This document shows positions 21,962 to 29,205 of a stretch of DNA of 32,000 nucleotides, piece after piece (within the stretch, counting starts at the first letter, position 1; every line of letters begins with the position of its first letter). The DNA is taken from positions 18,053 through 50,052 of the forward strand of contig JAGTJX010000004.1 of the NCBI GenBank assembly GCA_023657465.1, in the 5' to 3' direction. The notes beneath the pieces were generated by a model. The model was not told the DNA's origin and did no database searches. It was given only the letters and a program-made list of their open reading frames with translations. The DNA comes from Lysobacteraceae bacterium. GTDB taxonomy: Bacteria; Bdellovibrionota; UBA1018; JAGTJX01. A program made the translations under genes and the position numbers.

Positions 21962-22141
21962 CTAAGCTCTCTTTTTACCAGGAGGGGAAGCCAATATTTT
22001 TTTAGCTTCCTCTAAATCCACCAGCTGATCAGTAACGTAGCGATGAATCACTGAGCCCACTAAGGTTTGGTAGGGAAGTCCATGCTTGAGCGCTAGCTTC
22101 TGTAACTTGAGCAAGTCCTCTTCTGGCAAACGAATGTTCAT
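21962..22141 (-). CDS. Ribbon-helix-helix (CopG/BrnA-like) antitoxin, 59 aa
   Basis: This ORF is below the track threshold. It reads MNIRLPEEDLLKLQKLALKHGLPYQTLVGSVIHRYVTDQLVDLEEAKKILASPPGKKRA. The LPxxxL...G.PYQTL pattern is typical of RHH antitoxins. It lies directly upstream of the toxin remnant. Confidence 0.6.
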   Translation of the reverse strand: MNIRLPEEDLLKLQKLALKHGLPYQTLVGSVIHRYVTDQLVDLEEAKKILASPPGKKRA

Positions 22142-25380: not shown

Positions 25381-25441
25381 AACTTCGTCACTTCAACTAG
25401 CCCGCTTAATGGATAGAATGTCCATTTAATCCGGTAAATAG
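25381..25441 (+). repeat. Linker fragment (AACTTCGTCA...CGCTTAATGG...TCCATTTAATCCGGTAAATAG)
   Basis: It aligns to the ATCAACTAAA-CGCTTAATG-...-CCGGTAAAAG part of the linkers at 26548-26603 and 28961-29012. It stops abruptly at the 3' end of the Phd-domain gene. Confidence 0.7.
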
Positions 25442-25442
25442 C

Positions 25443-25772
25443 TCATGAGACTGGAGTGATCTCTGCGATGGCACGACCATGCTTTAGTAATCGCACAGTA
25501 TTTCCTCTCAGTACTTGATCGAGGATCTCTCCTGTTTTGTTCTTCAATTCAGTTGCCGAATAGCTCAGTATATTCTTTTTTAATTCAGCAATGACCCAGG
25601 ATTCGAGTTTAAGTAGCGACTGTACGGGTAGGGCGCTCTCAGACATGAGTCCGTCGTTTAAAATAAAATGCATCGCGACTGAAAACTCAATCCCAGGAAA
25701 ATAACCCTCGGAAATTTTCATTTTTAGATTTTCAATCAGATCAGGATTTAATATCTGCGACAATGTATTCAT
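25443..25772 (-). CDS. Protein with a C-terminal Phd/YefM-like antitoxin domain, encoded downstream of Fic
   Basis: I placed the start at ATG 25772, which follows AAGGAG and lies 11 nt after the Fic stop. The C-terminus SYSATELKNKTGEILDQVLRGNTVRLLKHGRAIAEITPVS matches the Phd/YefM N-domain pattern. The N-terminal 65 aa are unrecognised. Confidence 0.55.
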   Translation of the reverse strand: MNTLSQILNPDLIENLKMKISEGYFPGIEFSVAMHFILNDGLMSESALPVQSLLKLESWVIAELKKNILSYSATELKNKTGEILDQVLRGNTVRLLKHGRAIAEITPVS

Positions 25773-25783
25773 AAGTTCACTCC

Positions 25784-26413
25784 TTATTCTTTTGAAATGC
25801 GTTTTTTGAAAAACCGCTCTAATTGTGAGAGGTCGCCCGAGTTGGCAGCTTCTAGTGCTCTCAGATGCTCGACTTTGTCCTTCAGTTTGAAAGTGAACAA
25901 GCTTTTGAATTTCCAATGCAGCCAGTACGCCATCAAAACCCTGCCTATTCGCCCATTGCCGTCTTGGAAAGGATGAATGCTCTGAAAAGAATAATAAAGC
26001 TCTGCTATTTGATTTCGGTCATGAGGATCACGATTGTAAAGCTTGATCCATTCCTGCATTGCAGTCTGAACTTTTGATGGACTGACATAATCAAACCTGC
26101 TCCCGTCTGAGCGAAAGGTATAGTTTTCGATCGATTTCCATTTGCCATGATCTCCAGAGAATCCAGTAAAGAGTTTCTGATGAAAACTCTGAATCAAGTC
26201 TATCGAAACATAAGGGCTTTTTTGTAATTCATGAATCAGCCATTCGACTGCAGATCTATAGTTGAGGAGTTCTCTGGCTTCAGAGATGGGGTGACCAAGT
26301 ACAGTCCTGCCAGCCAAGATCTCGCGAGACTCCTGTTCGGTCAATGTTGAGCCTTCGACGAGAGTGGACCCGATCAATAAGGCATCTTCAAGATCTTCAA
26401 GCTTCCACTTCAT
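25784..26413 (-). CDS. Fic-domain protein (AMPylase/Doc-superfamily)
   Basis: The canonical Fic motif HPFQDGNGRIGR is present. I prefer the start at ATG 26413 (MKWKLEDLED). The TTG at 26449 is the track alternative and lies inside the promoter palindrome. Confidence 0.85.
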   Translation of the reverse strand: MKWKLEDLEDALLIGSTLVEGSTLTEQESREILAGRTVLGHPISEARELLNYRSAVEWLIHELQKSPYVSIDLIQSFHQKLFTGFSGDHGKWKSIENYTFRSDGSRFDYVSPSKVQTAMQEWIKLYNRDPHDRNQIAELYYSFQSIHPFQDGNGRIGRVLMAYWLHWKFKSLFTFKLKDKVEHLRALEAANSGDLSQLERFFKKRISKE

Positions 26414-26453
26414 ATTGACTATATTAGCTAAAAAAGCTAATATAGTCAATATG
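26411..26453. promoter_or_regulatory. Perfect 19-bp inverted repeat (5-bp spacer) forming a symmetric TTGACT-N17-TAATAT promoter on both strands
   Basis: CATATTGACTATATTAGCT-aaaaa-AGCTAATATAGTCAATATG. On the minus strand the -10 ends 7 nt before the Fic ATG, and the CAT of the left arm is that ATG. Confidence 0.7.
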
Positions 26454-26460
26454 GTGTGAA

Positions 26461-26759
26461 TACTTCGTCAGAGTGCCTTTAATGGGATCAGAACACTTGC
26501 CTGTTTTTTTTACAATCGTAGGACTTACACCGACTGGTTTGCACCATCCGCCAAATCAACTAAATCGCTTAATGAGAATAATGGCAAGTATTTCCAGTAA
26601 AAGTGGGTGAGCGAGAATGAGCGTTATTGAATAGAAGGCTTGTTACAATACCCTACGGCGCCGCGCTTGACTGAGTATGTTAGAGTCGCTATTTAACTTT
26701 TGTTTACTAAATGAAAGAAAATGGATTCAAAACACGAATCATATCTACTGGTCTAAAAC
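26461..26759 (+). repeat. Linker copy A (right module with X2 motif, promoter and leader hairpin)
   Basis: Roughly 80 percent identical by eye to 28957-29167 over about 210 bp. It precedes the secreted-protein gene at 26798. Confidence 0.8.
26667..26695 (+). promoter_or_regulatory. Conserved linker promoter TTGACT-N17-TATTTA (copy A)
   Basis: Hexamers lie at 26667-26672 and 26690-26695. The same hexamers and spacing occur in copies B and C. The leader hairpin GATTC-N7-GAATC lies at 26724-26740. Confidence 0.6.
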
Positions 26760-26797: not shown

Positions 26798-27355
26798 ATG
26801 AAAATATTCATTTTTTGTTTTTTTATACCTACTTTTGCTCTTAATTCTTTTGCAGAAGATCGAATTAAATTTGAAAAAAAAGGTGAAACTTACGATTTTC
26901 AAGTGAGTGATATCAATGGTCCTAATGGATCAACGGCACAAGAGGCCTTCCTCTATTACATATTTGCAGGCGCAAAAAAAAATAACTCGGATCAGAACGA
27001 CTGGAATGCATTCTACCGTATTCCTGGTTATAGAAAACAAACTATCAGTAAACTGCTTAAAGTAAATCTAGTTGGCGATTTACCAAAATATATTTGGCAC
27101 TTTTCACTTCCAACAGATGACCTGATTTCACACAAAAGCACGGAGAATAGCGAAGAGATACAAATCAAAGGTGAAGTAGCTGAGGTACTCTATGACGGTA
27201 TTCAAAATATACTAGCATACAACGATAGTCTTAGCTCTTGTGATAAGGAAAAAAGAGTTTTTCTTGGTAAAAAAATTGCTTGCTCACCAACTAAAATTAG
27301 AATCCAAAGTGAAGAATACGATTCAGCTCAATGTAAACTCACTTTAGATAAATAG
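26798..27355 (+). CDS. Secreted hypothetical protein
   Basis: Signal peptide is MKIFIFCFFIPTFALNSFAED. Length is 185 aa. No homology was recognised. Confidence 0.6.
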   Translation: MKIFIFCFFIPTFALNSFAEDRIKFEKKGETYDFQVSDINGPNGSTAQEAFLYYIFAGAKKNNSDQNDWNAFYRIPGYRKQTISKLLKVNLVGDLPKYIWHFSLPTDDLISHKSTENSEEIQIKGEVAEVLYDGIQNILAYNDSLSSCDKEKRVFLGKKIACSPTKIRIQSEEYDSAQCKLTLDK

Positions 27356-27387
27356 TTACCTGCTCAACAATTAGAAATGTCATGAGC

Positions 27388-27412
27388 GCCCGAAGATAAA
27401 TCACTTTCGGGC
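27388..27412 (+). terminator. Linker hairpin 2 acting as an intrinsic terminator (GCCCGAA-N11-TTCGGGC, then GTTTTCATTT)
   Basis: 7-bp GC-rich stem with a T-rich tail, 33 nt after the stop of 26798..27355. Confidence 0.65.
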
Positions 27413-27439
27413 GTTTTCATTTGAACTAAAATCAAATTA

Positions 27440-27808
27440 TTACGCAGCCCAATCCAAATCAATCCCTGAGAACTTGGCAAGTGGGATAAGTCCATTTCGA
27501 CTATTACCAGCTTCCTTCAAATCTATAAGACCAATATCGGCAAGGAGTTTGACATCGGTATGAACATTCTTGAAATCCCGTCCAAGTAGTTTCGCTAAAT
27601 CATAAATGGACTTGGGGCTTTGTTGAATGACCGCACGAAGAATCTCCATGCGAACTTTTGAAAAGACACGAGCTACCGCTTCTAGACTCGTAAAAATGAT
27701 TTCATCATCTTTTTGAATACCTTTTCTCTTACCCTCGATAGCCTCTGCCCATTCGCGTTTAGTGTTTTCTATTGTTTTAACAATAATTTTTGCATGTTTC
27801 TTTTTCAT
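27440..27808 (-). CDS. Winged-HTH antitoxin-like regulator (TumA-like partner)
   Basis: I placed the start at ATG 27808, which forms an ATGA overlap with the upstream gene's stop. HTH-like region is SIYDLAKLLGRDFKNVHTDVKLLADIGLI. Confidence 0.55.
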   Translation of the reverse strand: MKKKHAKIIVKTIENTKREWAEAIEGKRKGIQKDDEIIFTSLEAVARVFSKVRMEILRAVIQQSPKSIYDLAKLLGRDFKNVHTDVKLLADIGLIDLKEAGNSRNGLIPLAKFSGIDLDWAA

Positions 27809-28125
27809 ACTAAGAATCCCTCCATTCGAACCAAACTCCAAAAATCTTCAACTAACTGACTTACATCTTTAAATTCATACGCTTCTTCTCGCCCATTCCG
27901 GTGCAAATGGGGCCCCTTTGGCTTGTGGTTATCAAATCCAACGATCACTTCGCCTGACTCCCTCCAAACCAAGAAGAGAGAGAACTTTCGACCCTCTGGA
28001 TAATGAGGGCTTTCTGGAACATCAAATATTTTCAGCTCAGCAATGGCAACTTCTTCGCTAGCTCTATGAATGACTTGAACTTTAGAATGAAAAAGCAACG
28101 TCGCTGCTCGACGGGGAGAAGCCAT
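27805..28125 (-). CDS. TumE-like (DUF6516-type) toxin-antitoxin system protein
   Basis: The motif pattern HYPEGRKFSLFLV...GFDNHKPKGPHLHRNG...YEF resembles the TumE/DUF6516 family. Assignment is by eye. Confidence 0.55.
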   Translation of the reverse strand: MASPRRAATLLFHSKVQVIHRASEEVAIAELKIFDVPESPHYPEGRKFSLFLVWRESGEVIVGFDNHKPKGPHLHRNGREEAYEFKDVSQLVEDFWSLVRMEGFLV

Positions 28126-28163
28126 ATATGTTTATATTACCATATATAGAGCTTTGGTCAAGG

Positions 28164-28385
28164 ATTTCTACGAAAGAACATTCCAAATTCTACGCCCCAA
28201 CCTCTACTAAGTAATTTCCATTTAATCCGGTAGGCTTGTTTTCTAGAATCGCGAAATCAACTAAAACGCTTAATGAAAATATTGGCAAGTATGAACCCGC
28301 CTCACTTGACTTAGTCTACTAATGTTGATATTTAACTCGTGTTTACAAAATCATAGAAAATCTATTCAGAACCTGAATCAAAACT
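28164..28385 (+). repeat. Linker copy B (starts at ATTTCTACGAAAGAA; has X1 motif, promoter and leader hairpin; lacks the X2 segment)
   Basis: It aligns to 28871-29160 of copy C, with a deletion of about 75 bp after GGCAAGTAT. Confidence 0.8.
28306..28334 (+). promoter_or_regulatory. Conserved linker promoter TTGACT-N17-TATTTA (copy B)
   Basis: Hexamers lie at 28306-28311 and 28329-28334. The spacer sequence differs from copies A and C but its length is conserved. The leader hairpin ATTCAG-N3-CTGAAT lies at 28364-28378. Confidence 0.6.
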
Positions 28386-28418
28386 ATTTAGTCAAATGAC
28401 GTGAAGGATAGTGATGTT

Positions 28419-28796
28419 ATGAAAAAAATTATATTATGTGTGTTGTTGTTGATTTCGAATGCTGCATTTGCTCAAATAGAATTTGTCGAAACATATACCA
28501 TCGTTAGCCAGAAACCAGATGACATCTTCAGTACCATTATTAATCTTACTGATAATACAGGAAAAGTATTTTGTATAACTTGTCAGAATCCATTTGATGC
28601 AAGCTTTAAACGATCTGTCGCGTTTTGGGCTTATGGAAATGGTAGCGATAAATGGATTGCAACAACAAGTGAAACATTTAATTCAGACACTTGTCAAAAA
28701 CAAATATACTCATTGCTCGAACGTTTAGATGGCACGAATTCAATTGAGATTACTGTGAAAAATAAAATCTTAGTGAAGATGGATCTTAAGCACTGA
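28419..28796 (+). CDS. Small secreted hypothetical protein
   Basis: I moved the start to ATG 28419. Signal peptide is MKKIILCVLLLISNAAFAQ. The mature part of about 106 aa has 3 Cys. Confidence 0.6.
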   Translation: MKKIILCVLLLISNAAFAQIEFVETYTIVSQKPDDIFSTIINLTDNTGKVFCITCQNPFDASFKRSVAFWAYGNGSDKWIATTSETFNSDTCQKQIYSLLERLDGTNSIEITVKNKILVKMDLKH

Positions 28797-28840
28797 CTTC
28801 ATGAGCATCACATGCTCATCCTAGTAAAAGATTCTCGAAC

Positions 28841-28865
28841 GCCCGAAGGTAAATCGCTTTCGGGC
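28841..28865 (+). terminator. Linker hairpin 2 / intrinsic terminator (GCCCGAAG-N8-CTTTCGGGC, then GTTTTCATTT)
   Basis: 8/9-bp GC-rich stem followed by a T-rich tail, 45 nt after the stop of 28419..28796. Confidence 0.7.
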
Positions 28866-29075
28866 GTTTTCATTTCTATGAAAGAATTTTCGAAATCCTG
28901 CGCTCGAACCTCTACTCAGTAATTTCCATTTAATCCGGTAGACTCGATTCCAAAAACCGCCAGATCAACTAAAGAGCTAAATGGGAATATTGGCAAGTAT
29001 TTCCGGTAAAAGAAGGGTGCTAAGAGTGAGCGTTATTGAATAGAATTTCAGCCATATTGCCATACGGATCCTACC

Positions 29076-29104
29076 TTGACTTAGCCTATTAGAGTCGCTA
29101 TTTA
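29076..29104 (+). promoter_or_regulatory. Conserved linker promoter TTGACT-N17-TATTTA (copy C)
   Basis: Hexamers lie at 29076-29081 and 29099-29104. The leader hairpin GATTCA-N5-TGAATC lies at 29133-29149. Confidence 0.6.
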
Positions 29105-29205
29105 ACTCTTGTTTACAAAATCAAAGAAACTCGATTCAGACCATGAATCTAAATCATGGGTCTAAAGACAAAACTGCTGCTTCCATTTCAAAGGTCGTTA
29201 TTTTG

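Follow-up and report, generated by a model that had tools for sequence, protein, structure and literature searches.

Type II toxin-antitoxin (TA) loci move between genomes, and the plasmids, phages, integrons or transposons on which they reside are generally taken to be their vehicles. To our knowledge, the entry of a carrier-less chromosomal TA pair has rarely been seen at base resolution. A TumE/TumA-like pair lying inside a copy of a repeated intergenic linker raises the question of whether such a pair was inserted there as a discrete unit, and by what kind of event. The genome's own repeat family provides a virtual empty site, and thereby a base-level view of the insertion of a TA operon without a transposase of its own.

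The pair lies within the window, by which we mean the whole 32,000-nucleotide stretch of DNA that was analysed (Table 1). The nearest TumA homologues are named as Pseudobdellovibrionaceae, Bacteriovoracaceae and Bdellovibrionota metagenome-assembled genomes, that is, as Bdellovibrio-like bacteria. Between about 20.6 and 31.3 kb of the window, orphan signal-peptide genes on the plus strand alternate with TA modules on the minus strand, and a reiterated linker is found between them. A short CopG-like open reading frame (ORF) in the array (window 21962-22141) is a degraded relative of BrnT/BrnA-like TA pairs present at C1:343821-344398 and C3:174857-175434.

The linker is a dispersed terminator-containing repeat, with ∼35 significant profile matches in eight clusters on all four contigs; no member of the family was found in 40 genomes of the same order that were searched. 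We divided it into modules which follow each other in the order M0, M1, M2, M3 and a promoter/leader module. Folding prediction gave two hairpins for M0 and M1 together (-18.8 kcal/mol, z -5.9), which serve as terminator for the gene before the linker. M2, with a length of about 70 nt, starts with ATTTCTATG and is predicted to form no hairpin (z -0.2 to +1.6); no Rfam family matched the linker. As M2 occurs without M1 in about eight copies, with unrelated DNA upstream, the M1/M2 junction is a natural module edge. Wherever else the type of M1 found at the TumE/TumA locus occurs among the matches listed, M2 comes immediately after it, and there are about 11 intact M1-M2 junctions versus the one that is occupied. 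M2 is bracketed by a direct 9-nt motif, TTTYCATTT (window 28864-28945 and all copies), its ends being conserved and its middle variable, and it stands alone at four sites.

Table 1. Features of the TumE/TumA locus and of the sites compared with it. Coordinates without a contig prefix are those of the window. Profile positions refer to a linker profile built from six intact copies and the rejoined split copy, so that the matches of the two flanks arise partly by construction; the alignments described in the text are independent support.
Feature	Position	Strand	Description
Window	C3:18053-50052		2.83-Mb genome, four contigs, 43-44% G+C
Upstream cassette gene	26798-27355	+	185 aa with signal peptide, without Pfam match; terminator within the left linker half
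Left half of split linker (M1)	27356-27422	+	Profile positions 1-42, E 6e-7; ends in ATTT
Left ATTT	27419-27422	not applicable	Sequence and alignments
Inserted TumE/TumA unit	27423-28163	-	741 bp
tumA, antitoxin	27440-27808	-	122 aa, winged-helix PF25212, E 3e-23
tumE, predicted toxin	27805-28125	-	106 aa; Pfam TumE PF20126 (DUF6516), E 2.2e-8, 34.4 bits versus curated cut-off of 23.4, residues 28-99
Two CCATATAT operator boxes	at 28122 and 28140	-	Overlapped by the promoter (feature 28122-28161); conserved in homologous units
Predicted promoter	28161-28134	-	TTGACC-16-TAATAT, TG before -10; 2 nt between -35 box and right junction
Right half of split linker (M2 and M3a, then promoter/leader of next gene)	28164-28400	+	Profile positions 35-163, E 2.5e-35
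Right ATTT	28164-28167	not applicable	First 4 nt of M2
Downstream cassette gene	28401-28796	+	131 aa, signal peptide, no family
Intact linker copy C	28797-29166	+	Profile positions 1-163, E 1.4e-48; closest relative of split copy; virtual empty site
Fic/Phd-like TA module	∼25438-26517		Splits complementary linker pieces (profile positions 43-106 and 105-163) at the M2/M3 edge (CCGGTA/GACT); no target duplication
VapBC-like pair	C2:885923-886652 (site C2:885829-886781)		Between M2 broken after CCATT (profile position 94) and a fresh M2 start
HigBA-like pair	C3:3834-4533 (site C3:3786-4601)		Between M2 broken after CCATT (profile position 94) and a fresh M2 start
IS3-family element	C4:854034-855346		1313 bp, OrfA 101 aa, OrfB 312 aa; second copy, 99.6% identical, in C1:9770-13547

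When the TumE/TumA segment was removed, the joined linker halves aligned end to end with 16 other copies, and the single surplus at the junction was the four bases ATTT. The bases bordering the two ATTT sequences differ on both sides (C on the left and G on the right before it, G on the left and C on the right after it), so that the repeat is exactly 4 bp long. Left and right of the junction alike, the split copy is closest to its neighbour, copy C (92% identity on the left, 82% on the right), indicating that the two halves come from one linker copy. Overall the two copies are 84% identical, the highest pairwise value in the linker family, and the split copy is nested within that family. The site also emerged, with an overlap of 4 and a gap of 741, when the whole genome was scanned blindly for split repeats. 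The other clean sites in the scan were genuine IS insertions (ISL3-type, IS66-type and a 2.1-kb element), with duplications of ∼8-10 bp. The precise 741-bp insertion with a 4-bp ATTT duplication that had been claimed in the first-pass annotation is therefore borne out, the halves rejoining to an intact linker plus 4 nt, and the objection that they might belong to different copies fails. As evidence of mechanism a single 4-bp duplication is suggestive, not proof: an apparent duplication of at least 4 nt was seen in 1.9% (∼1 in 50) of simulated duplication-free insertions, in which random 741-bp genome fragments were placed into linkers.

The insertion point is no more than 4 nt from the natural left edge of M2, for which the chance is roughly 5%, and 9 nt behind the stem of a terminator hairpin in the left half (8-bp stem arms at 27387-27394 and 27406-27413, followed by a T-run; -10.8 kcal/mol, z -2.5). 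An inverted repeat across the left junction (27411-27424 with 27432-27445, 79% complementary) was attributed to chance, 831 nt containing 26 pairs of this kind. The split copy also lacks ∼70 nt of M3b, the stretch from TTCCGGTAAAAG to GAATAGAA, which in copy C separates M3a from the promoter module (window 28292-28300 versus 29001-29070).

By its sequence features, the 741-bp segment is a complete, self-regulated type II TA operon of the TumE/TumA kind. The ATG of tumA overlaps the stop codon of tumE (ATGA), the pairing of the two genes is kept in all homologous loci, and the tumA stop codon is 17 nt from the left junction. Terminal inverted repeats are absent, no inverted pair linking one end of the unit to the other, and the insert contains no recombinase gene. 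Pfam matches and the repeat search thus agree with the earlier description of the insert as a TA operon and its operator only. The unit is present in single copy, with one BLAST match to the unit and one match to TumE in the genome. TumE-TumA is an experimentally validated, translation-targeting TA superfamily that combines a DUF6516 toxin with a winged-helix antitoxin (Durairaj et al. 2023, PMC10584680). The pair described here shares with it a TumE domain above the Pfam cut-off, an adjacent small winged-helix partner, an overlapping bicistronic operon and a palindromic operator at the promoter. It is a distant member (34 bits), whose toxicity and neutralization are predicted from sequence, and the movement of modules is not treated in that paper.

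If the unit is mobile, it should be recognizable in other surroundings. Many TumA homologues with 84-92% identity were found in metagenomes, and homologous units, 76-81% identical in DNA sequence, occupy six or more unrelated neighbourhoods in other Bdellovibrionota metagenome-assembled genomes: between DUF3108 and LpxL-LpxK genes; with a small ORF, a BLUF gene and a Na-H antiporter gene; with LolA and RlmH genes; beside a gene for a 621-aa protein; and others. Similarity to the unit begins no more than 2 nt from its promoter end, at the -35 box, and ends at the stop codon or within ∼17 nt after it. In a six-way alignment, pairwise identity was 65-78% within the unit, falling to 30-40% in each bin of the flanks. 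The TumA and TumE proteins of these units are 84-90% and 71-82% identical to those of this genome, whereas the flanking housekeeping proteins of the same contigs are only 34-49% identical to their counterparts here. As the TA proteins are far more alike than their housekeeping neighbours, the unit has been exchanged recently between deeply diverged lineages. The proposal that TA modules move as independent units is thereby supported, and we consider it very likely that the locus records a real insertion of a horizontally mobile unit.

The linker was absent from all the other contexts of the unit that were examined, and AAAT precedes the -35 box in none of the homologous units, which indicates that the tetranucleotide is not part of the unit. 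When the same ends were assumed for six other units, inspection by eye for flanking 4-bp repeats gave one candidate, matching at three of four positions and at the same offset (GCCA/GTCA, L021), and no others. In the present genome, ∼300 bp without a TA pair separate DUF3108 and LpxL, a gene-level empty site for one of the contexts. An empty site in another genome or strain was found in none of the strains and metagenomes searched: no record was returned when the upstream gene and tumA were looked up as exact proteins, look-ups of the neighbours of homologous units returned occupied sites only, metagenome pattern scans of the LolA/RlmH context gave no empty site, and the relatives of one carrier genome were too distant for base-level comparison. 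Phage carriage of the unit was discarded, no phage match being found; plasmid matches to the TA family, which is plasmid-borne in other phyla, were distant (<36% identity). In a metagenomic relative of the unit (L036:1-500) most of tumE has been lost (∼100-340 of the unit missing) while the promoter and an intact tumA are kept, giving an orphan antitoxin derivative. In the Bacteriovoracaceae genome with the closest unit, a different dispersed repeat of 65-130 nt (L037:2347-2479) lies ∼170 bp upstream of the TA promoter. It has many copies in that genome and in one other.

Other TA units adjoin linkers in this genome. The Fic/Phd-like module is a second clean case of a TA unit within a linker, with a different kind of junction (Table 1). 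The breakpoints after CCATT at the VapBC-like and HigBA-like pairs may be the diverged end of M2, not true junctions. BrnTA-like, HicAB-like and HTH/nucleotidyltransferase pairs adjoin linkers at other positions, so that in all at least five different positions are used, including profile positions of about 94, 106-109, 126 and 163. No clean duplication was found at any of the other TA units adjoining linkers, and no terminal motif common to the TumE/TumA, VapBC, HigBA and Fic/Phd units. TA units clearly accumulate at linkers, but at no single sequence. The idea that they use the linker as a specific target is supported in part only. Insertion of the TumE/TumA unit at a natural edge of M2 hints at a site preference, but elsewhere the unit lies in ordinary intergenic DNA without a linker, and the linker positions of the other TA units vary. 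The HigBA-like pair has a -35-like box 1 nt from its junction, and the stop codon of the VapBC-like pair is 17 nt from its junction, the same distance as that of tumA.

Since the unit encodes no recombinase, an enzyme that integrated it would have acted in trans. The first-pass annotation had proposed a search for such a recombinase elsewhere in the genome, and one candidate was found, a recently active IS3-family element whose two copies are flanked by 4-bp duplications (GAAG and CGAT). Its transposase is the only enzyme identified in the genome that makes duplications of this length; no IS4 or IS5 transposases were found in the genome. The resemblance of the unit's ends to those of the element is, however, weak. 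The promoter end was matched to the right inverted repeat of the element at a level reached by 1% of random 30-mers, the other end at a level reached by 9%, and what likeness there is comes from the -35 box and the AT-rich operator. IS3 transposases require paired inverted repeats, which the unit lacks. Of the three other carrier genomes checked, two gave no match to the element; these genomes are metagenome-assembled, and such assemblies often miss IS elements. We regard an IS3-type transposase as a doubtful agent. The genome also gave seven serine-recombinase and 18 tyrosine-recombinase matches, and the sole recombinase gene in the window is of the Xer type, beside trmFO and 8 kb from the array. 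An IS200/IS605-type insertion was rejected, because a single weak match to Y1 transposases was obtained and visual inspection showed no hairpin close to the end of the unit that carries tumA.

Several other histories could have led to the same arrangement. The TA-bearing linker might be ancestral, the intact linkers descending from a copy in which deletion between the ATTT repeats had removed the operon. Such a deletion between 4-bp repeats is mechanistically possible, but the split copy is nested beside copy C and is no outgroup, the intact M1-M2 junctions far outnumber the occupied one, the unit is too similar to units of distant lineages to be old here, and BLAST of the genome revealed no remnants of tumE or tumA in other linker copies. 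With the split copy nested in the family and copy C its nearest relative on both sides, insertion is far more parsimonious than ancestral presence, which we hold to be extremely improbable. Alternatively, the insertion may be real and the duplication not, the second ATTT having come from donor DNA or microhomology as a coincidence of AT-rich sequence. The intergenic DNA of this genome has a G+C content of 31-39%, the simulations produced such coincidences, and the Fic/Phd unit of the same array lies in a linker with no duplication. Here, however, the repeat is exact and bounded by mismatches on both sides, and AAAT before the -35 box is found in no homologous unit. Coincidence is accordingly a distinctly improbable source of the second ATTT, which probably arose from a staggered cut.

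The place of the insertion would be accounted for at least as well as by transposition if the linker arrays were an integron-like cassette platform with site-specific recombination of its own. ATTT at the M1/M2 junction would then be the crossover core, the TA operon one more cassette and the flanking ATTT a regenerated core. Insertion took place at the natural left edge of M2, where some eight M2 copies start after unrelated DNA, and TTTYCATTT precedes M2 and recurs near its end. The VapBC-like and HigBA-like units lie between a CCATT-broken M2 and a fresh M2 start, the Fic/Phd unit is exactly at the M2/M3 boundary, and orphan secreted-protein genes occupy one strand and TA modules the other, as they likewise do in sedentary chromosomal integrons. 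Yet no integron integrase was found in the genome (best TIGR02249 score 71.6 bits versus a cut-off of 265), no recombinase gene is beside the array, the Xer-type gene being the nearest in the window, and M2 has neither an attC-like hairpin (z about 0) nor an Rfam match; an integron proper was rejected on these grounds. The TA units also adjoin linkers at five or more different positions, the CCATT breakpoints may be no more than a diverged M2 end, and the TumE/TumA unit integrates in genomes in which the linker family was not found. We think a platform of this kind rather unlikely, although a single event fits a transposition-type duplication and a site-specific core alike and the two cannot be told apart by it. 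The absence of inverted repeats and of a recombinase, and the single copy, would also be expected of a one-off illegitimate integration, in which a double-strand break arose behind the hairpin of the terminator, its 4-nt overhangs were filled in and an incoming linear TA fragment was joined to the ends, only complete self-regulated TA operons surviving selection. The site is beside a strong REP-like hairpin; REP-like hairpins are gyrase sites in enterobacteria, type IIA topoisomerases cut with a 4-bp stagger, and such an enzyme or a nuclease could make the break. Incoming DNA is plausible for a TA family that is plasmid-borne in other phyla. On the other hand, no Ku homologue was found in this 96%-complete genome, so that classical end joining is unlikely and joining through Ku was rejected. 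A variable donor flank would be expected as well, whereas all similarity among the contexts of the unit, at least six in number, stops 2 nt before the -35 box and ∼17 nt past the stop codon. This too seems an unlikely origin.

On balance, and with modest confidence, we favour staggered-cut integration in trans of a horizontally acquired TA unit. The unit reached this lineage by horizontal transfer and was integrated as a discrete piece into a copy of the terminator-linker repeat that the genome already possessed, behind the terminator stem, where nothing essential is disrupted and the TA operon ends facing its neighbour's terminator. Cutting of the target with a 4-nt stagger and filling of the gaps would have duplicated ATTT. 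The enzyme, for which the IS3-family transposase is a weak candidate, would have been supplied in trans. After integration, TA addiction would hold the unit in place and, together with the other TA units nearby, TumE/TumA would stabilize the accessory array.

Related behaviour is known from several systems. Sedentary chromosomal integrons contain small orphan genes, a reiterated spacer and interspersed TA modules with their own promoters in the opposite orientation, which are presumed to stabilize the array. The array described here has the same small orphan genes and repeated spacer, opposite-strand TA modules with their own promoters and a presumed stabilizing role, but it has no attC-like folding site and no IntI, and the TA unit, which ends 17 nt after its stop codon, has no recombination site. 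The pdif modules of Acinetobacter plasmids are small, are often TA pairs and are moved by a host enzyme in trans; they are bounded by inverted 28-bp XerC/XerD sites. The TumE/TumA unit resembles them as a small TA module without its own recombinase, but no XerC/XerD-like sites were seen by eye to flank it. MITEs and mobile insertion cassettes moved by IS transposases likewise have no transposase in the unit, and the 4-bp duplication is of the length made by the IS3-family element of this genome. The TumE/TumA unit differs from them in having no terminal inverted repeats, in its single copy and in its weak, one-sided likeness to IS ends. By analogy, the nearest published parallel is the insertion of restriction-modification (RM) units with target duplication. 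RM units can enter a genome without linkage to a mobile element, leaving target duplications that are either short or long (Furuta, Abe & Kobayashi 2010, PMC2853133; review PMC3874152). Those with short duplications have long imperfect inverted repeats and duplicate 8 bp, and others duplicate from 30 bp to >100 bp (PMC2853133; PMC3874152). Common to the two cases are an addictive two-gene unit without its own transposase, a clean insertion and a flanking direct repeat, although here the single ATTT is seen in paralogous intact linkers and not at an allelic empty site. The TumE/TumA unit differs in lacking inverted repeats, in its 4-bp duplication and in its TA instead of RM cargo. Integron TA cassettes and pdif modules are similar in logic to the insertion of this carrier-less TA operon, but the sites that define those two systems are absent here.

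A wider reading can be put forward tentatively, and we consider it unlikely as a whole: bare TA operons in the Bdellovibrio-like clade, extending from promoter to stop codon and lacking both inverted repeats and a recombination site, might form a class of non-autonomous mobile cassettes that are excised and reinserted by an enzyme in trans, with a 4-nt stagger and preferentially behind terminator hairpins, the linker arrays serving as an integrase-less, integron-like landing platform. A dedicated trans mechanism, if true, would explain the pile-up of TA units in accessory arrays and defence islands, and the present locus would offer a concrete system for TA mobility, with a unit, a target and a candidate enzyme. 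If the event was a one-off illegitimate integration, the locus is a tidy but ordinary horizontal acquisition.

Several further elements were noted in the course of the analysis. The paralogous BrnT/BrnA-like TA pairs on C1 and C3 each lie beside a linker copy and a shared gene for a 249-aa secreted protein; their common surroundings show segmental duplication between arrays. The C1 copy of the IS3-family element is interrupted by a 2.45-kb element whose ends match an IS66-type element at C4:434992-437446. A full-length ISL3-type element with a 438-aa transposase (C2:880984-882394; duplication ∼10 bp) lies in linker-associated sequence, beside an M3-like fragment at C2:880870-880920, and deletion derivatives of it lacking 468 bp are present at C4:264685-265630 and C2:546808-547753. 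A 2084-bp element (C2:883027-885110), with ORFs of 365, 118 and 132 aa and a duplication of ∼9 bp, is located just upstream of the ribosome-binding site of a gene.
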